From Escherichia coli (GTDB taxonomy: Bacteria > Pseudomonadota > Gammaproteobacteria > Enterobacterales > Enterobacteriaceae), in the NCBI RefSeq assembly GCF_016903815.1, contig NZ_CP069973.1: a DNA stretch of 64,000 bases; one strand, given 5' to 3'. Each line of letters starts with the position of its first letter. Positions within the stretch are counted from its first letter, which is position 1. A model generated the notes under the pieces. It worked only from the letters and a program-made list of their open reading frames with translations, was not told the DNA's origin and did no database searches. This document shows positions 12,328 through 26,151 of the stretch, one piece after another. The translations under genes were made by a program, and so were the position numbers.

Positions 12328-13599
12328 TTAAACCAGGAACAGTGAAATCGCCGGGATATATGTCACCAGCATTAGCATTAACAGTAGAGCCGCCAGTAGG
12401 GGCAGGGATTGTTTAAAGAAATTTCCCACCGAAACTTGCGTGATATTACATACCAGCAGCATCACGGTACCTACCGGTGGCGTGAATGCGCCAATCGACA
12501 GGTTGAAGATCATGATGATGCCAAAATGCACCGGATCGATGCCAAAGTGTTCGACCACCGGTTTTAATAGTGGTACCAGGATCAGCAAAATGGCGTTTCC
12601 TTCCAGAAACATCCCCAGCGTCAGCAGCAATATGTTGATAATCAACAGGAACATGTATTTGTTTTCGGTCAGCGAAGTCACAAAATTCGCCACTGCGACA
12701 CCAGCATGTTCCATTGAGAAAATCCATCCCAATGCGGCGCTGGCCATGATTACCAGCATCACCGATGCGGTTGCGCGTGCCGTTTCGCCCAATGCTTTGA
12801 CGACATGAGAAATCCGCATTTCACGATAGATAAAAAAGCCAATCGCCAGCACGATTAGCACCGCTACTGCACCTGCTTCTGTTGGGGTGAAAATGTTAGC
12901 GCGAATACCACCCACCACAGCAAAAATGAGGAACAGCGCAGGCCAGGCCTGTCCCAGCGAGAACACCATCTCTTTGCCCGTAGGCCAGCTTTCACGCGAG
13001 GGTTTAGCGTTAGTTTTGCGGGCGACAAGGTAGACGGTAAACATCAGTACGACTGCGCATAGCAAACCAGGTACCAGTCCGGCGATAAACATTTTTCCGA
13101 TAGAGACATCGGCAACCAGACCGTAAATAATCAGGGCTATTCCAGGCGGTATGATCGGGGTGACTAACGAGCCACCAGCGGTAATGGCGGCGGCAAACGC
13201 GCGATTGTAGCCTTTACGTTCCATCTCCGGCACCATCATGCGCGACAGCATCGCCGCGTCAGCAAGGTTAGAGGCGCTGACGCCGCCCATCATGGTGCTG
13301 ACGAGAATGTTTGCCACGCCCAGTCCGCCGCGCATTTTCCCCACCAGAACGTTGGCAATGTGCAGGATGCGTTCGGCAATGCCGGTGTAGCTCATTAGTG
13401 TGCCGAGCAAGATAAAAAACGGAATTGCCAGCAATGATGGGCTTTGCGTTGGCGCGATTAGTCTTTGCACGGCAATTTCAATCGGTACGCTGGAGAAGAA
13501 TAAAAAGTAAGCGATGATGCCAATAAACATCGCCAGATAGACCCGAATGTTGAGAAACAAACAGACGATCATTAGCGGAATAATCAATAACCAACTCAT
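12328..13599 (-). CDS. TRAP transporter large permease subunit (DctM family), 423 aa
   Basis: ORF track 423 aa polytopic membrane protein with DctM-like sequence; 4-bp ATGA overlap with the upstream DctQ-like gene. Confidence 0.8.
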   Translation of the reverse strand: MSWLLIIPLMIVCLFLNIRVYLAMFIGIIAYFLFFSSVPIEIAVQRLIAPTQSPSLLAIPFFILLGTLMSYTGIAERILHIANVLVGKMRGGLGVANILVSTMMGGVSASNLADAAMLSRMMVPEMERKGYNRAFAAAITAGGSLVTPIIPPGIALIIYGLVADVSIGKMFIAGLVPGLLCAVVLMFTVYLVARKTNAKPSRESWPTGKEMVFSLGQAWPALFLIFAVVGGIRANIFTPTEAGAVAVLIVLAIGFFIYREMRISHVVKALGETARATASVMLVIMASAALGWIFSMEHAGVAVANFVTSLTENKYMFLLIINILLLTLGMFLEGNAILLILVPLLKPVVEHFGIDPVHFGIIMIFNLSIGAFTPPVGTVMLLVCNITQVSVGNFFKQSLPLLAALLLMLMLVTYIPAISLFLV

Positions 13600-14069
13600 T
13601 GCATTTTGTCTCCGCTATCGGATTGTTTTGTATCGTTTATTAACCAGTAGAGGGTATAAATAGCCGTTGCCAGTGCGCCGACAGGGACCGCCAGATCGAT
13701 CCAGAACCAGGAAACTTTCAGAATTTGTGTCACTTTAAACTGCGCCATTTCGGCTAGTCGGTAGCCCAGCCAGGCCATATAAAGCAGCAGTGCGATGGAG
13801 AGAAGGGCGACCAGTACTGCAATAACACGCCTGAGTTTGCCTGGAAGCATCTCCATCAGGAAGGGAATGGTCAGGTGCGCCCTGTCACGTTCCGCCACCA
13901 CTCCACCTAACATCACCACCCAAATCATCAGCATTCCCGACATTTCTTCTGTCCATTGAAGCGGTTGGCCGATGAAATAACGCATAAATACCGCTCCAAT
14001 TGTCACCACAACCAGAACGAATAGCGCAAAGGCAGCACTAAATTCTGCCACTTTGCCAAAAAGACGCAT
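13596..14069 (-). CDS. TRAP transporter small permease subunit (DctQ family), 157 aa
   Basis: ORF track 157 aa, four predicted TM segments, lies between DctP-like and DctM-like genes. Confidence 0.75.
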   Translation of the reverse strand: MRLFGKVAEFSAAFALFVLVVVTIGAVFMRYFIGQPLQWTEEMSGMLMIWVVMLGGVVAERDRAHLTIPFLMEMLPGKLRRVIAVLVALLSIALLLYMAWLGYRLAEMAQFKVTQILKVSWFWIDLAVPVGALATAIYTLYWLINDTKQSDSGDKMQ

Positions 14070-14132
14070 GAAACCTCCTGTTAGTGCGTGTCCTGCCTAA
14101 GAGAGATGAGGCAGGACGCTGAGCATTAATGC

Positions 14133-15104
14133 TTATTGCAGTTGCTGTTGAATGGTTTCGTACAGACCTGGTGTCCATTCCGGGAATTGAGAGTAAACTT
14201 CGCGTGCTTTCTTCTGGAATGGTCCAGTATCGGGATAGATCACTTCGACGCCGGCTGCCTGCATGGTTTTCAACATTTCGGCATCACGCTCAAGAGTGAG
14301 TTTCTGGCTATAGACACCCGCTTCATAGCCGGTCTGGTGGATCATCTCCAGTTGTTCTGGTGAAAGGGTGCTAAAGAAGGCTTCACCACCTATCCACACT
14401 GAGGTATTTGTCAGGTAGTTAACCATTGTCAGATATCTTGCCTGCTCATACAGTTTTTGCCCTTGCAGCACTGAAATTGGGTTTTCTACGCCGTCAATAA
14501 CGCCCTGGGTTAATGCGGGATAAACTTCGCCTAATGGCATGGGAGTTGGTGTTGCCCCCATCGCCTGAATGGCTTTTATTTGCATGACGTTATTAGGAAC
14601 GCGAATTTTTAAACCTGCGAGATCGTCAACGGTGCGAATGGGTTTTTTCGAAATAATCTGTCGAGTGCCATAGAGATAATTATTCATTACCACATGAATT
14701 CCCTTTTTCTTCAGACTTTCATTTTTTTGTTTAAACCAGTCGCTTTCATATATTTTGAACAGTTTTTGCGGATCGTCAGTCAGATACGGTCCAAACAAAA
14801 TCCCCAAATCGGGTTCATAATCGGCAAGAAAAGCCACATCACTCAAGGTTATGACATTCATGCCCATCATGGCTTGCTCGGTGACATCCTGTTTTGATCC
14901 CAATTGGGAGCTGGGATAGAGCGCAAGTGTTATTTCGCCATTACTTTTTTTATTTAATAGGTCTGCCCAGTAACGCATGACCACATCCAGGGGTTCTCCA
15001 GGGTTATTTTCATAGGCAACTTTTATTGAAATAGGTTTTGCCTGGATTATTGACGGTAAAAAAAGGGTACTGACAGTAATTAGCATCGCTATTATTTTGC
15101 TCAT
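14133..15104 (-). CDS. TRAP transporter periplasmic solute-binding protein (DctP family), 323 aa
   Basis: ORF track 323 aa with N-terminal signal peptide (MSKIIAMLITVSTLFLPSIIQA) and DctP-like body; first gene of the dctPQM-type operon. Confidence 0.8.
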   Translation of the reverse strand: MSKIIAMLITVSTLFLPSIIQAKPISIKVAYENNPGEPLDVVMRYWADLLNKKSNGEITLALYPSSQLGSKQDVTEQAMMGMNVITLSDVAFLADYEPDLGILFGPYLTDDPQKLFKIYESDWFKQKNESLKKKGIHVVMNNYLYGTRQIISKKPIRTVDDLAGLKIRVPNNVMQIKAIQAMGATPTPMPLGEVYPALTQGVIDGVENPISVLQGQKLYEQARYLTMVNYLTNTSVWIGGEAFFSTLSPEQLEMIHQTGYEAGVYSQKLTLERDAEMLKTMQAAGVEVIYPDTGPFQKKAREVYSQFPEWTPGLYETIQQQLQ

Positions 15105-15794
15105 CTTTACTTACTCCATGCTAAGGAAATAAAACTCCAACATTGTTGTCGGGAGTGAAACCTTATGAAAAAGCAGTCATTACTGAAAAGTAGTCAGCGA
15201 ATAGCAGAATGGCTGCAGATGTATCATAAATTCGTGCACCGGGTAATACTTTGCTGCTTTTAATCGGTTTTTAATGCATTTTTTGATTGTATATCTTAAA
15301 GTTATGTAATGCATGACGTTACAAGGAACACCCTCTGATGAGTTTAGTTACCGCTGATAAGATCTCTTATTCTGTTGATGATTTATTAAAAATAAAATCA
15401 TTAATTTGGCTGCGGCCATTTTAAATTGTCAATACAGATAAAAACTAAGTGTTGACGCAGAATGGTGGTATCCATTAAATTTATTTAGTGCTGATTTAAT
15501 ACATTTGCTGAACGTATAATTCATGCTGATATTAAAAGAAAACCGTCATTCACTAAATAACTTGTTCGGCAAGGAAATCAGAGAGTAACGGATGATTCGT
15601 TACAACGGGGAAAGGCAGTAAATATTCACGTGGTGAATTTGTTATCAACTTGAAAACTCATTTTACTGGGTTCCTTCTGATCATGTGAGTGAACGCAGTG
15701 ATTAATGATTAACGTTAAGTGCTAACCAGAGCGCTTTTTATGAAGTTAAATTAATAATATCCATTATTTATGAATGAGGAAGCCTGTTTATTAT

Positions 15795-17447
15795 ATGGAA
15801 ATACTTTTAACAATTTTAATTCTTACGTTGGTAGTATCATTAACCAGCGTGCTTACACGTCTGTCTCCTGTCCAGATACCACTTCCTTTAATCCAGATTG
15901 CCGCTGGCGCAGTACTGGCCCAGCCTATATTTGGTCTGCATGTGGAATTCAATCCTGAACTTTTTCTCTTATTGTTTATACCACCCCTGTTGTTTGCTGA
16001 AAGTTCAAAAATACAACCTAAAGAATTGATCAAGCACAGCCGGGAAATTATCAGCCTGGCACTTGTGTTGGTACTAATCACTATTTTTGGTGTCGGCTAT
16101 GTGATTCATTTACTCTTACCGAATGTGCCGCTCATCGCTGCTTTCGCATTAGCCGCCGTGTTGTCGCCTACCGATGCCGTGGCGTTGCTGGGGATTGTCG
16201 GGAAAGGGCGTATCAGCAAAAACATCCAGGAAGTGCTCGAAGGCGAAGCGTTGATGAATGATGCTTCCGGCCTGGTGGCGTTGAAATTTGCTGTTGCAGT
16301 GACGATGGGAACGATGGAATTCAGCGTTCATGGCGCAACCATTGCGTTTTTTGTCGTTGCGTTGGGCGGTATTGCCGTGGGGATCGCTGTTACCTGGTTA
16401 TATGGTAAAGGGCTGCTGTTGATCAGCCGATATGCTCACGATGAACCTTCCATTCAGATTGTATTGATGCTTCTGTTGCCGTTTATTGTTTATCTGGTTG
16501 CGGAACATTTTGGCTTATCTGGCATTCTTGCCGCTGTCGCCGCGGGGTTAACAACCAGTCGCATTGGTGTAGTCCACCACGCGCCTATTCGCCTGAGAAT
16601 TAAAGCTAAAAGTAGCTGGTCGATGCTTGAATATGTCTTTAACGGCATGGTGTTTCTGATTTTAGGCTTACAACTGCCGGGCATTATTTCGGAATCACTG
16701 ATCCGTGCAGAAAACGATCCACTGGTGGACACCGGATCGCTGCTCCTTGATGTCATTTGGATCTACCTGGCGTTAATGGTTGTGCGCCTGGGCTGGCTTT
16801 GGCTGATGCGTCTGTATAGCCGTAAACGACCCGGCAAACATCCGATGCTGTTTGCTGGATATAAAACGCGTCATATGCTGCTGGCGACCTTTGCGGGGGT
16901 GCGCGGAGCTATCACGCTTGCGGGGGTGCTTTCTATCCCGTTATTGCTGCCGGATGGCACACCTTTTCCCGGGCGTTACTTGCTGGTATTTCTCGCCACA
17001 GGTGTGATCCTCTTTTCGCTGGTTTGCGGCATTATTATTCTGCCGTTATTACTGGGGAAAAATGTGGGGATTTTCAGCGATAACCGACAAAAAGAAGAGG
17101 AAGCTGCCGATCTGTTTATGGCTAAAATGGCCATACTGAGTGTGCAAAAGACCGAGCAACGTTTGCTGCGCGCCAGAACAGAAAACCTCGATAACGAGTT
17201 GATTATGGAAACGGGGGCCAGAGTTATCGGTTATATGCGACATAGTGAAGAGGATATGTCGCCTAATGATAATTCCCTGCATATGCAGCGTGCGAAGCTG
17301 GAAAGAACATTTAATCTGGCGGCGTTAAATGCCAAACGCGCGGCTATTTACCAGATGCGCGCAAGGCAAGAAGTCAGTGATGAAACACTGGCAAAAATAG
17401 TCAGTGAATTAGATGTGCTGGAAACGTTAATCATGGATAGCCGATAA
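15795..17447 (+). CDS. CPA1-family Na+/H+ antiporter (NhaP type), about 550 aa
   Basis: ORF track 557 aa from 15774; I place the start at the second Met (MEILLTILILTL, 15795), which is preceded by aggaag; transmembrane exchanger domain plus cytoplasmic C-terminal tail; an alternative start is at 15774. Confidence 0.75.
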   Translation: MEILLTILILTLVVSLTSVLTRLSPVQIPLPLIQIAAGAVLAQPIFGLHVEFNPELFLLLFIPPLLFAESSKIQPKELIKHSREIISLALVLVLITIFGVGYVIHLLLPNVPLIAAFALAAVLSPTDAVALLGIVGKGRISKNIQEVLEGEALMNDASGLVALKFAVAVTMGTMEFSVHGATIAFFVVALGGIAVGIAVTWLYGKGLLLISRYAHDEPSIQIVLMLLLPFIVYLVAEHFGLSGILAAVAAGLTTSRIGVVHHAPIRLRIKAKSSWSMLEYVFNGMVFLILGLQLPGIISESLIRAENDPLVDTGSLLLDVIWIYLALMVVRLGWLWLMRLYSRKRPGKHPMLFAGYKTRHMLLATFAGVRGAITLAGVLSIPLLLPDGTPFPGRYLLVFLATGVILFSLVCGIIILPLLLGKNVGIFSDNRQKEEEAADLFMAKMAILSVQKTEQRLLRARTENLDNELIMETGARVIGYMRHSEEDMSPNDNSLHMQRAKLERTFNLAALNAKRAAIYQMRARQEVSDETLAKIVSELDVLETLIMDSR

Positions 17448-17617
17448 TTTTATCGCTGCCAGTAATAGGGAATTAAATGATGGCTGAGAGTAATACTTCC
17501 AGCATCGTTTATTCCCTATGTATTTCCTTATGGGCAGAACAATCGCCTGGATTAATACTGCATTAATACAACATAGTGATATAAACCAAGAATCAATGTT
17601 TTTAATCTGTACTTAAT

Positions 17618-18523: not shown

Positions 18524-18566
18524 TCTTCCCTCCAGTCCGGCATTAAAAGCCGATTTAAAACATTTT

Positions 18567-18584
18567 TATGCGCGATCATCCGCA
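18567..18584. promoter_or_regulatory. Inverted repeat in the lgoR/lgoD divergent promoter, candidate GntR-type operator
   Basis: ATGCG-cgatcatc-CGCAT palindrome; position only, no known consensus applied. Confidence 0.3.
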
Positions 18585-18661
18585 TATTTTATGGGTAAAT
18601 TCAGGCGCTCTTATAAATTCGACGATATCTGAAAGTCATAAAATAAAAGGAGCGGTGAATC

Positions 18662-19684
18662 ATGTCCACAATGAAAGTATTAATTTGTCAGGAAATAAAG
18701 AATTTAGTATGGGAAGTCCGGGAAAGACCGGTGCCAGGCGATAATGAAGCATTAATTAAAATTAAAACTGTCGGGATTTGCGGTACAGATATTCATGCCT
18801 GGGCGGGCAATCAGCCATTTTTTAGTTATCCACGCGTTTTAGGCCATGAAATATGTGGGGAGATTATTGAATCAGGAAAAAACATTCACAATTTTAATAT
18901 CGGACAGCAAGTTGCGGTAATTCCGTATATTTCTTGTCAGCAATGCCCGGCGTGTAAAAGCGGTCGTACCAATTGCTGTGAAAAAATTTCAGTCATTGGC
19001 GTGCATCAGGATGGCGGTTTTAGTGAGTATTTGAGCGTGCCGGTGGCGAACATTTTGCCCGCAGACGGTATTGACCCGCAGGCGGCAGCATTGATTGAAC
19101 CTTTCGCTATTAGCGCTCATGCGGTGCGTCGTGCCGCCATTGCACCCAGCGAGCAGGTGCTGGTGGTCGGGGCGGGGCCAATCGGTCTGGGCGCGGCGGC
19201 AATCGCTAAAGCCGATGGCGCGCAGGTGGTGGTGGCGGATACCAGTCCGGCGCGTCGTGAACATGTGGCAACGCGTCTGGAATTACCTGTTCTGGACCCG
19301 TCAGCCGAAGATTTTGACGCGCAGCTGCGGGCGCAGTTTGGTGGTTCGCTGGCGCAGAAAGTGATTGACGCGACAGGTAATCAACATGCGATGAATAACA
19401 CCGTAAATCTGATTCGTCACGGCGGCACGGTGGTATTTGTCGGCCTGTTTAAAGGTGAGTTGCAGTTCTCCGATCCGGAATTCCATAAAAAAGAAACGAC
19501 GATGATGGGCAGCCGCAACGCCACGCCGGAAGATTTCGCTAAAGTCGGTCGATTGATGGCGGAAGGGAAAATCACTGCCGACATGATGTTAACCCATCGC
19601 TATCCGTTCGCCACGCTGGCAGAAACCTACGAGCGCGATGTGATTAACAATCGTGAGTTGATTAAGGGTGTAATTACTTTCTGA
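18662..19684 (+). CDS. lgoD: Zn-dependent L-galactonate 5-dehydrogenase LgoD (YjjN), 340 aa
   Basis: ORF track 340 aa; MDR/alcohol dehydrogenase fold with GHEICGE zinc motif and GAGPIGLG NAD-binding motif. Confidence 0.88.
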   Translation: MSTMKVLICQEIKNLVWEVRERPVPGDNEALIKIKTVGICGTDIHAWAGNQPFFSYPRVLGHEICGEIIESGKNIHNFNIGQQVAVIPYISCQQCPACKSGRTNCCEKISVIGVHQDGGFSEYLSVPVANILPADGIDPQAAALIEPFAISAHAVRRAAIAPSEQVLVVGAGPIGLGAAAIAKADGAQVVVADTSPARREHVATRLELPVLDPSAEDFDAQLRAQFGGSLAQKVIDATGNQHAMNNTVNLIRHGGTVVFVGLFKGELQFSDPEFHKKETTMMGSRNATPEDFAKVGRLMAEGKITADMMLTHRYPFATLAETYERDVINNRELIKGVITF

Positions 19685-25532: not shown

Positions 25533-26151
25533 AACTCGCCCTTTGTCATAGACGTGCTGCGTATTGTTCAGATAATGAGAATCCATTTGTATCATGAAGC
25601 ACGGTTGTTTTGCGGTAGGTTAAGATCAAAATTGCGCTGATTAATCCTGGTTATCGGGAGATGCTCGGTGATAAAAAGCGAATTATCTCTCGCCGTAAAC
25701 AAACTATCGCATGAATATTATCACTATAATGAATTTGTTATTTGGCCTTTACGAGTCAGGATAATAGATAGCTGGGCGCGTTTTTTTATGTTAACAAGTT
25801 AAAACCATCAGATTTTATTGAATAAATATTGATTGTGTGATTCCCGCACTCTGCGGGAAGGGATATCATTTAATTATAAATTAAATGAATGTGATTTCTG
25901 TTTTTCATTAAGTATTCCTAACAACTTAATGTAGATATTTTAAATGTCTCCAGGCTATTTCACCAGGTTATCATTTGATGCTAACCTTCTGACACATGCA
26001 GTGGAGTTGTTGTGCAGCAGGAGTATGCTGATATGAAAGTGAATGCTAAGGATAATTTATTCGCTTAATCTATTAATTTGCTGGAAACATTTAAGGAATG
26101 AATATCCTGAATAAACCATCATGATTTTTAGACAGTGGATGTGGAGGAAAT

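Follow-up and report, generated by a model that had tools for sequence, protein, structure and literature searches.

Background

In Escherichia coli K-12 the lgoR-lgoT and lgoD genes form divergent operons, with lgoT reported to be co-transcribed with lgoR (PMC5934670). Exposure to L-galactonate induces lgoR, lgoT and lgoD in this strain and the regulator is YjjM (bioRxiv 10.64898/2026.05.20.726482). In three Citrobacter loci that we compared, the order is lgoD <-> lgoR -> dctPQM with a spacer of 184 bp between lgoR and dctP, and neither an antiporter gene nor a ~500-bp AT-rich flank is present. TRAP transporters, of which dctPQM encodes one, are Na+-coupled. Control regions upstream of a Na+/H+ antiporter gene have been described in the nhaA-nhaR region, and some genes for Na+/H+ antiporters are preceded by ion-sensing riboswitches.

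Here we describe the long intergenic region that separates a TRAP operon from a divergent antiporter gene within a stretch of 64,000 nucleotides of E. coli DNA, referred to throughout as the window. A literature search found nothing on this TRAP-antiporter locus, including mapped transcription starts or factor binding; the TRAP locus of a BEN2908 paper was considered and proved to be a different locus, lying between ygiQ and ftsP.

Results

Locus and intergenic region

The window belongs to the E. coli chromosome, where it covers the tsr-lgoR-lgoD-opgB locus, and it is 100% identical to strains 7/2 and IHE3034. Along the locus one finds tsr, dctMQP (on the minus strand), the gap, the antiporter gene, an lgoR-like GntR gene, lgoD and opgB, in this order, and K-12 carries lgoT where the TRAP genes and the antiporter stand here. 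This arrangement of TRAP genes and antiporter was found in 862 of 5426 complete E. coli genomes (~16%), with ExPEC strains CFT073 and IHE3034 and STEC O26 among the carriers of the locus, and the region is single-copy (a median of one place per genome among the complete E. coli genomes). Divergent clade-level Escherichia alleles share the arrangement, indicating that it is old within Escherichia. The features that delimit the gap are as follows.

14133-15104, minus strand: dctP-like TRAP substrate-binding protein gene, the first gene of dctPQM (12328-15104)
15105-15794, unstranded: the intergenic gap, 690 bp with 33.6% GC, flanked by dctP on the minus strand and the Na+/H+ antiporter gene on the plus strand
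15795-17447, plus strand: Na+/H+ antiporter gene, CPA1 family (PF00999), 58% amino acid identity to K-12 YjcE

The dctP start at 15104 on the minus strand has a GGAG Shine-Dalgarno sequence and a signal-peptide-like N-terminus, and the antiporter start at 15795 is that of RefSeq. The first-pass annotation had given the gap as about 670 bp because the length comes to 669 bp when counted from an in-frame ATG at 15774, an ATG that is non-conserved. The clade to which the antiporter belongs is YjcE-like and is unrelated to YjjE.

The same annotation had singled out the region as unusually long, AT-rich and lacking a convincing ORF, and all three descriptions are borne out. The GC content is 33.6% against 51.9% for the window as a whole, the gap is the most AT-rich 690-bp stretch that the window contains, and only 12 of 6331 sliding windows of 690 bp are equally AT-rich, every one of them overlapping the gap region. 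An AT-rich tract spanning ~14500 to 16000 surrounds it, and the AT-rich run that had been quoted as an example lies at 15475-15538. Among the intergenic regions of the annotated first 50 kb the gap ranks first in length, followed by yjjP-yjjQ (619 bp, 35.1% GC). The only ORF of at least 60 aa to touch the gap (15770-15958) is out of frame and overlaps the antiporter start, the largest small ORFs are of 44 and 32 aa and are disrupted in the divergent N50 and E4742 alleles, and the longest stop-free run within the gap extends to 55 codons. A Pfam search of the small ORFs gave no match, and across the 859 complete E. coli genomes carrying the region the gap is without annotated features. The gap is without coding or Rfam signal, and we consider it likely to be a real but ordinary composite divergent regulatory region and not a gene.

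Mosaic origin of the gap

Alignment to related loci resolves the gap into a mosaic, in which the old lgoR-dctP spacer (15105-~15293) adjoins the 5' flank of an antiporter cassette (~15294-15794), because the cassette sits between lgoR and dctP.

15105-15293, minus strand: older part of the gap, whose homolog in Citrobacter amalonaticus is the lgoR-dctP spacer (184 bp) together with the last ~10 nt of lgoR
15294-15794, plus strand: cassette 5' flank, ~32% GC, without a homolog in the Citrobacter or K-12 loci
17448-17596, plus strand: cassette 3' flank, part of the ~15294-17596 cassette
17597-17617, minus strand: second copy of a 21-nt repeat (TGTTTTTAATCTGTACTTAAT on the plus strand), directly after the lgoR stop codon

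Over its entire length the Citrobacter spacer can be aligned with window positions 15293-15108, and the C. amalonaticus locus from which it comes encodes a DctP and a DctM that are 90% and 94% identical to those of the window and shares with it, within the spacer, both the sequence motif described below and a hairpin with a T-run. The older part also retains 70-100% identity to the very divergent N50 and E4742 alleles and probably comprises the 5' UTR of dctP together with an operator. With K-12 the likeness is more local: window 15226-15279 is 82% homologous to the DNA directly 3' of lgoR, and this K-12 sequence matches the window at 17680-17597 as well as at 15276-15226. In K-12 the spacer is 214 bp long and lgoT lies in the same orientation as lgoR, whereas in the window the TRAP genes are split from lgoR by the cassette and a divergent region of 690 bp has taken the place of the spacer.

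The cassette (~15294-17596) is 2.3 kb in length and consists of the antiporter gene with ~500 bp of AT-rich upstream and ~150 bp of downstream DNA. It is bracketed by an imperfect direct repeat of 21 nt, the copies of which (15255-15275 and 17597-17617) are 81% identical and resemble different relatives (K-12 and Citrobacter). The repeat is long and imperfect and coincides with the motif that is also found in the lgoR-lgoD region; there are hints in these sequences of recombination rather than target-site duplication behind the two copies. The older arrangement would have been lgoR followed after ~180-210 bp by one or more transporter genes on the same strand, with the 2.3-kb antiporter cassette being placed between lgoR and dctP. 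In an alternative order of events a pre-assembled block would have been imported, as opposed to a cassette being inserted into an lgoR-dctP locus. An insertion-made mosaic, which the first-pass annotation had missed, would be the main reason for the length of the gap.

Conserved islands, predicted promoters and a candidate operator

Comparison with very divergent alleles from Escherichia shows neutral evolution over most of the gap, with the exception of a few conserved islands. The fourfold-site identity of the flanking genes to the N50 allele is only 0.39-0.71, and in comparisons with the divergent Escherichia alleles the middle of the gap is indel-rich and 25-50% identical while the conserved islands are 65-100% identical. 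Short conserved non-coding islands over a neutral background, a mark of divergent promoter/operator regions, are present, and the sites that they and the adjoining sequence contain are listed here.

15137-15152, minus strand: terminator- or attenuator-like weak hairpin with TTTTATTT after it, ~30 nt 5' of the dctP start codon
15258-15275, minus strand: locus-specific motif ATTAAAAACCGATTAAAA, a candidate operator, 95-100% conserved against ~40-55% for the neutral background
15286-15291, minus strand: -10-like hexamer TACAAT, directed towards dctP, where old spacer and cassette join, kept in all three Escherichia lineages, predicted start ~15279
15452-15481, plus strand: sigma-70 promoter-like TTGACG-18-TAAATT facing the antiporter, predicted start ~15488, leader of ~305 nt
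15624-15638, unstranded: dyad ATTCA-N5-TGAAT, its arms conserved and its spacer variable among the aligned Escherichia alleles
15685-15794, plus strand: conserved antiporter-proximal block of 110 bp, containing GATTAATGATTAAC, a candidate helix, a GAGGAA Shine-Dalgarno sequence (15776-15781) and an upstream ATG (15770)
18542-18560, plus strand: the motif again (ATTAAAAGCCGATTTAAAA, its third copy), within the divergent promoter region of lgoR and lgoD

Promoter and terminator prediction, which had been put forward as a check on the region, gave a candidate promoter facing each flank when the orthologous alleles were included, and no plus-strand terminator in the gap. The number of promoter-like sites in the gap (7 against 4.2 +/- 2.1 in shuffled sequence) is not above expectation. 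On the antiporter side, separate scans of the window, N50 and E4742 alleles each called TTGACG-17/18-TAAATT at an orthologous position, and the site lies inside a conserved island. On the dctP side, the promoter scan of N50 called CAGACA-18-TACAAT at the orthologous place, while in the window allele TACAAT is preceded by a poor -35 and hence received no call. An alternative dctP -10, TATGAT (15228-15223), was dropped as it is not conserved in N50 or E4742. For the hairpin close to dctP the energy is -8 kcal/mol (z -2.6) with the window allele but weaker, at -3 to -6 kcal/mol, with the others, N50, E4742 and Citrobacter all having a hairpin at the matching position. A search for CRP sites returned best matches with 3 mismatches in 10 core positions, none of them convincing.

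The motif within the older part of the gap recurs nearby. The pattern ATTAA-N5/6-ATT(T)AAAA has 4 matches in the 64 kb, all of them in the lgo locus, against 0.04 expected; these are at 15275 (minus strand), 17617 (minus strand) and 18542 (plus strand), with a weaker fourth at 18751. The motif stands at orthologous places in K-12, Citrobacter and N50, and K-12 shares with the window lgoR, lgoD and the presence of the pattern both after lgoR and in the lgoR-lgoD region. We take ATTAAAAACCGATTAAAA as a candidate operator at which LgoR, the GntR-type regulator encoded in the locus, would act. The operators usual for GntR/FadR-type proteins are palindromic and the motif is unlike these, so it may be bound by a protein other than LgoR.

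The dyad at 15624-15638 is suggestive of a transcription-factor site. Its spacing fits T-N11-A, which is the outline of LysR-type sites such as those of NhaR. The resemblance to the nhaA-nhaR region does not go much further, however, in that the antiporter here is of the CPA1 family (YjcE-like) and not NhaA, no LysR-type regulator gene is adjacent and, in contrast to the ion-sensing riboswitches, there is no Rfam match.

Possible silencing by H-NS

One reading to which we give about even chances is that the gap is chiefly a platform for H-NS/StpA, with foreign AT-rich DNA being coated and both divergent units remaining silent unless counter-silenced. It is compatible with a composite regulatory region and concerns which layer of control is dominant. 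The 33.6% GC over 690 bp in the midst of an AT-rich tract and the accessory, mosaic nature of the locus both speak for such a platform, as does the density of A/T tracts of at least 4 bases, at 21.7 per kb in the gap and 9.8 per kb across the window. Within the window just one other gap, that of yjjP-yjjQ/bglJ (25533-26151), is comparable; it is likewise long, AT-rich and divergent, is unrelated in sequence, and is a known H-NS/LeuO target, silenced by H-NS and regulated by LeuO. On the other hand, the high-affinity H-NS motif TCGATAAATT is not enriched in the gap, with 1 match (as many as 2 mismatches being allowed) where shuffled sequence gives 1.7 +/- 1.3, a density equal to the window average; many AT-rich promoters would be predicted to bind H-NS from their composition alone; and the conserved islands point to specific factors too. 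H-NS binding of the gap is plausible from base composition only. The earlier suggestion that length and composition are typical of xenogeneic DNA held up for composition and origin, the DNA being accessory and the antiporter-proximal ~500 bp having come with a cassette absent from the Citrobacter and K-12 loci, and both this origin and the base composition fit the profile of DNA bound by nucleoid proteins such as H-NS.

A possible regulatory RNA in the gap

The first-pass annotation had offered as a second option that the region encodes a small RNA or leader, and this option drew no support from Rfam, folding or the covariation control. We regard it as unlikely that the ~300 nt upstream of the antiporter form a cis-regulatory leader RNA (for example one responsive to ions or pH) or an independent small RNA. 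What recommends the idea is a conserved promoter-like site ~305 nt upstream of the antiporter start codon, the conserved islands inside the putative leader and a candidate A/U-rich helix of 11 bp (15701-15713 with 15745-15755) that is 97% paired across 4 lineages, in which two pairs are changed on both sides and the G-U pairs fit the plus strand only. The covariation of this helix, an RNAalifold proposal, was however equalled by 73 of 500 shuffles in an alignment of only four lineages, one lineage (L078) breaks 2 of the 11 pairs, and the consensus structure, at -10.2 kcal/mol for 135 columns, is weak. The putative antiporter leader has a folding z-score of -0.40 relative to shuffled sequences (-0.49 for the dctP leader), much of it is unconstrained and indel-rich, no plus-strand terminator was found, and the DNA 5' of antiporter homologs from other genera has no alignable sequence in common with the E. 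coli gap.

An Rfam/covariance search, which had been named as a means of checking for such an RNA, was run with permissive filters on 3 kb and on 751 bp and returned no bacterial family; the only matches were to eukaryotic miRNA and snoRNA families at 16-19 bits against gathering thresholds of 45-100 (E-values 2 to 8), chance matches far below threshold. A metagenome scan for further divergent alleles yielded no new lineage and just a copy of the N50 allele. On the minus strand an sRNA-like promoter with a hairpin (15603-15585) was rejected, as the sequence is only 30-47% identical to that of the other lineages, in which the scan called no comparable site.

A regulatory RNA is still conceivable in a leader of ~300 nt that has conserved islands. 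More specifically, it is a long shot that the distal promoter (15452-15481) and the A/U-rich leader constitute an undescribed regulatory RNA in which the helix and the 15685-15794 block would tune antiporter translation to Na+, pH or a trans factor. If true, such a leader RNA would couple Na+ export to the Na+-dependent uptake of sugar acids by the TRAP transporter encoded in the divergent operon.

Search for gene or element remnants and small proteins

That the gap descends from a gene or mobile element that has decayed, leaving a pseudogene or an IS/MITE scar, appears quite improbable. Direct repeats do bracket the cassette, and the equivalents in Klebsiella sp. I138 and Limnobaculum have long gaps holding a ManD-like gene remnant. 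In tblastx comparisons of three alleles against all fetched loci, though, only the Citrobacter spacer and other Escherichia alleles were matched, and neither a Pfam match nor a stop-free run longer than 55 codons favours a pseudogene. With regard to a mobile element the region is single-copy with no plasmid homolog found, the cassette ends are without terminal inverted repeats and no transposase gene is annotated. A 21-nt similarity to the lgoR 3' end at 15592-15612, which would be an inverted lgoR remnant, was discarded as not significant against shuffled sequence.

A small protein missed by annotation, such as the product of the 32-aa ORF at 15165-15263 or of the 28-aa ORF at 15338-15424, is scarcely credible, since the former, while preceded by GGGAG as a plausible Shine-Dalgarno sequence, stops after 9 codons in N50 and 13 codons in E4742 through indels with the DNA itself staying conserved, and the other small ORFs sit in unconserved, indel-rich sequence and have no Pfam match.

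Related loci in other genera

In Klebsiella sp. I138 and a Limnobaculum MAG an antiporter with 77% identity is likewise divergent from DctPQM over a gap of 703-751 bp, with a GntR/FCD gene nearby. The TRAP transporters of these loci belong to a different family (DctP of 353 aa, DctM of 493 aa) and their gaps cannot be aligned with that of E. coli. These gaps are also mosaics, in which the ManD-like remnant is accompanied by a 70-bp block that is common to locus L082 and absent in E. coli.

Discussion

Taken as a composite divergent regulatory region, the gap would work as follows. The insertion would have separated dctPQM from the lgoR promoter, and transcription of dctPQM is now probably driven from a promoter at the junction, with TACAAT at 15291-15286 as its -10 and with ATTAAAAACCGATTAAAA lying just downstream of this -10 as a candidate operator. 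The antiporter gene is probably transcribed from TTGACG-18-TAAATT by way of a ~300-nt leader that contains conserved islands resembling protein-binding sites. The ~160 bp between both promoters and much of the leader would be unconstrained AT-rich filler, which H-NS may coat. Given that TRAP transporters are Na+-coupled, it is plausible that the neighbouring antiporter could expel the Na+ that the TRAP transporter brings in by co-transport.

These results leave current understanding unchallenged and their value lies mainly in annotation, in that an odd gap of 690 bp may be explained as the seam of a gene-cassette insertion. They also indicate, for an accessory sugar-acid locus carried by ~1/6 of complete E. 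coli genomes, the positions of likely promoters and of a candidate operator. The recurring link of a clade of YjcE-like antiporters with Na+-dependent TRAP/sugar-acid loci leads to the testable idea that Na+ may be recycled locally.

Locus structure and distribution

The window derives from the E. coli chromosome, with 100% identity to strains 7/2 and IHE3034, and carries in order btsT, tsr, dctM-dctQ-dctP (the TRAP operon, minus strand), the gap at 15105-15794, a CPA1 Na+/H+ antiporter gene (plus strand), lgoR, lgoD and opgB, with the GntR/FCD regulator gene orthologous to lgoR on the minus strand and lgoD on the plus strand. In K-12, by contrast, the place of the TRAP genes and the antiporter is taken by the MFS transporter gene lgoT. 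The K-12 lgoR-lgoT and lgoD units are reported to be divergent operons (PMC5934670), and L-galactonate induces lgoR, lgoT and lgoD, the pathway regulator being YjjM (LgoR) (bioRxiv 10.64898/2026.05.20.726482). The TRAP-plus-antiporter allele is found in 862 of 5426 complete E. coli genomes, invariably chromosomal and at one copy per genome, and none of these carriers has an annotated feature inside the gap. The allelic replacement lies between tsr and lgoR (window 12328-17617 versus K-12 locus L002 5362-6723) and the K-12 gene replaced encodes the MFS L-galactonate transporter; nucleotide identity to K-12 is only 79% in lgoR and about 98% in tsr and opgB. Elsewhere in the window, just after nadR, the RefSeq annotation has a NadS-family pseudogene (49858-49994), partial and frameshifted.

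Size and composition of the gap

The first-pass annotation had described an unusually long, AT-rich divergent intergenic region lacking a convincing ORF, and the sequence matches this exactly at 690 bp, AT-rich and without a credible ORF. The length follows from the two flanking starts:

15104, minus strand: dctP start, with a GGAG Shine-Dalgarno and a signal-peptide-like N-terminus
15795, plus strand: antiporter start, from the RefSeq annotation of identical genomes

The antiporter start is common to homologs of other genera, all opening ATGGA[A/T]AT; counting from the in-frame ATG at 15774, which is not conserved, would give 669 bp. The GC content of the gap is 33.6% versus 51.9% for the window, and equally AT-rich 690-bp windows are rare (12 of 6331 sliding windows), every one of them overlapping the gap. 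Within the annotated 50 kb it is the longest intergenic region, followed by yjjP-yjjQ (619 bp, 35.1% GC). The latter (25533-26151), second in both length and AT-richness, is a useful internal comparator and corresponds to the yjjQ-bglJ promoter region, which is under H-NS/LeuO control. ORFs in the gap reach at most 44 aa and stop-free stretches at most 55 codons. The GAGGAA Shine-Dalgarno of the antiporter lies unusually far, 13 nt, from its ATG (15770-15797). The upstream ATG at 15770 is conserved; in N50 and E4742, two very divergent Escherichia alleles of the tsr-opgB locus, it starts a mini-ORF of 6 codons that stops just before the antiporter start, while in the window allele it continues out of frame for 62 codons.

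Mosaic origin of the gap

Using the DctP protein as a query against one genome per species, the closest relatives were those of Citrobacter amalonaticus (DctP 90%, DctM 94% identical), where the order differs, lgoD being divergent from lgoR-dctP-dctQ-dctM with a 184 bp lgoR-dctP spacer and no antiporter. This spacer, with the final ~10 nt of lgoR, can be aligned over its full length to window 15293-15108, and the K-12 sequence directly 3' of lgoR matches the window twice, at 17680-17597 (right after lgoR) and at 15276-15226. An independent repeat finder returned a 21 nt direct repeat (15255-15275 and 17597-17617, 81% identical, 2342 bp apart). Taken together these show that ~15294-17596 is a 2.3-kb cassette placed between lgoR and dctP, made up of a 5' flank of about 500 bp, the antiporter gene and a 3' flank of about 150 bp, so that the gap is the old lgoR-dctP spacer plus the 5' flank of the cassette. 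Neither terminal inverted repeats nor a transposase gene was found in the cassette. As the repeat copy beside lgoR is K-12-like and the one beside dctP Citrobacter-like, recombination between different alleles is no less likely than a true target-site duplication.

Within Escherichia this arrangement is old. The N50 and Escherichia sp. E4742 alleles share the architecture, their gaps measuring 730-733 bp, and in tsr and opgB N50 has only 87% identity to the window. The entire tsr-opgB block of N50, which is labelled E. coli (L003 1516-12204), stands at only about 87% identity, with dctP fourfold sites 39% identical, and in btsT the identity climbs from 95% to 100% across the compared part; the block, which lies within a few kb of the hsdRMS/mrr region, looks like an import from a cryptic clade of Escherichia.

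Relatives and neighbours of the antiporter

The antiporter is 58% identical to K-12 YjcE. In Klebsiella sp. I138 and a Limnobaculum MAG, homologs with 77% identity likewise face away from a TRAP operon, of another family than the E. coli one, with 703-751 bp between; a GntR/FCD regulator gene is nearby in both loci (gaps L070 7298-8000 and L080 5033-5783). In the metagenome locus L082 the divergent neighbour, 510 bp off, is a ManD-like dehydratase gene, apparently intact as far as the contig end (1-1161), and in Edaphovirga the neighbours are plasmid-type Rep3/ParA genes 644 bp off. In the Klebsiella and Limnobaculum gaps a remnant of the ManD-like gene's 5' end is present, together with a 70-bp block of ~80% identity shared with L082 (…CCATACAAGAATGTTTGT…), which indicates that long gaps beside the antiporter repeatedly arise by rearrangement. 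None of the Klebsiella, Limnobaculum, L082 and Edaphovirga gaps could be aligned to the E. coli gap. TRAP transporters are Na+-coupled, and against this background the finding of the antiporter close to TRAP and sugar-acid loci time after time suggests that it may have a role in local Na+ recycling.

Two reciprocal-looking hybrids of yjcE and the antiporter were also seen. An E. coli draft assembly (L072 8001-9653) has ghxP-[yjcE nt 1-~850 :: antiporter 3' part]-lgoR-lgoD-opgB and a metagenome locus (L081 1133-2782) has dctP-gap-[antiporter nt 1-~500 :: yjcE 3' part]-LysR-lrgAB-actP-yjcH, its gap 98% identical to the window. In public sets there are several near-identical proteins (about 81% identity). 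Since the L072 junction occurs in 0 of 5426 complete genomes, the hybrids could reflect chimeric assembly, or else rare rearrangement between paralogs that lie about 310 kb from each other.

Coding and RNA potential

The first-pass interpretation was of xenogeneic DNA bound by nucleoid proteins or of a small RNA or leader; this is partly supported, in that the DNA is accessory and AT-rich and H-NS binding is plausible, while neither Rfam nor folding pointed to an sRNA or a structured leader. At permissive thresholds Rfam returned only chance eukaryotic miRNA/snoRNA matches, and folding was no better than shuffles for the 323-nt putative antiporter leader (z -0.40) and the 211-nt dctP leader (z -0.49). 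In the antiporter-proximal block RNAalifold proposed a weak structure (-10.2 kcal/mol), the best helix pairing 15701-15713 with 15745-15755 (97% of cells paired across four lineages, two double changes); 73 of 500 column shuffles did equally well and lineage L078 breaks two of the pairs. Metagenomes scanned for additional divergent alleles yielded only a copy of the N50 allele.

The single sRNA-like arrangement, a minus-strand hairpin (15603-15585) with upstream promoter-like sites, falls in sequence that is not conserved. A 32-aa ORF with a Shine-Dalgarno (15165-15263) ends after 9-13 codons in N50/E4742 while the DNA is still conserved. A lgoR-like 21-mer was not significant. The small ORFs had no Pfam match, tblastx found no gene remnants in the gap and no plasmid homologs of it were found.

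Conserved islands and candidate regulatory sites

At fourfold-degenerate sites of the flanking genes, identity to the window is no more than 39-71% for N50 and 46-79% for E4742, and this strong divergence gives the comparison real footprinting power. The bulk of the gap is 25-50% identical to these alleles with many indels and is thus unconstrained, leaving five islands.

Conserved islands and candidate sites in the gap
15105-15313: island (i), faces dctP, peak 95-100% identity at 15244-15283
15450-15509: island (ii), promoter-like TTGACG-17/18-TAAATT, called independently in all three lineages
15619-15638: island (iii), dyad ATTCA-N5-TGAAT, arms conserved, spacer variable
15687-15726: island (iv), and 15735-15794: island (v), together covering GATTAATGATTAAC and the Shine-Dalgarno region
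15275-15258, minus strand: motif ATTAAAAACCGATTAAAA, within island (i)
15291-15286, minus strand: TACAAT, conserved, at the junction just upstream of the motif
15152-15137, minus strand: weak hairpin and T-run about 30 nt before the dctP start

There are four matches to the pattern ATTAA-N5/6-ATT(T)AAAA in the 64-kb window (0.04 expected from locally shuffled sequence), every one in the lgo locus: one upstream of dctP, one directly 3' of lgoR, one between lgoR and lgoD in their promoter region, and a weaker one inside lgoD. The pattern recurs at orthologous places in K-12, Citrobacter and N50 and is a candidate operator, with LgoR the obvious candidate binder. An independent promoter scan of the N50 allele called the TACAAT as part of a promoter, CAGACA-18-TACAAT. 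The dctP-proximal hairpin is thermodynamically marginal; N50, E4742 and Citrobacter have one at the same position. The gap yielded no convincing CRP site. In the lgoR-lgoD promoter region the window allele has a palindrome, TATGCGCGATCATCCGCATA (18567-18586), where K-12 and Citrobacter carry the CRP-site-like ATGCGTGTGTTTTCACAAA, so regulatory input may differ.

Proposed regulation

Insertion of the cassette would have cut dctPQM from the lgoR promoter, and the junction promoter probably drives the operon now, with transcription starting near 15279. This would put the candidate operator at about +4 to +22 and leave a leader of about 175 nt beyond it. For the antiporter, transcription probably begins near 15488 and passes through a long leader with protein-binding-like islands. 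The two predicted -10 elements would stand back to back, about 185 bp apart, within unconstrained AT-rich DNA. The A/T tract density of the gap is twice that of the whole window, and its base composition makes H-NS coating plausible; no enrichment of the high-affinity H-NS motif was seen in it. The gap is best explained as an ordinary composite divergent regulatory region, unannotated so far.
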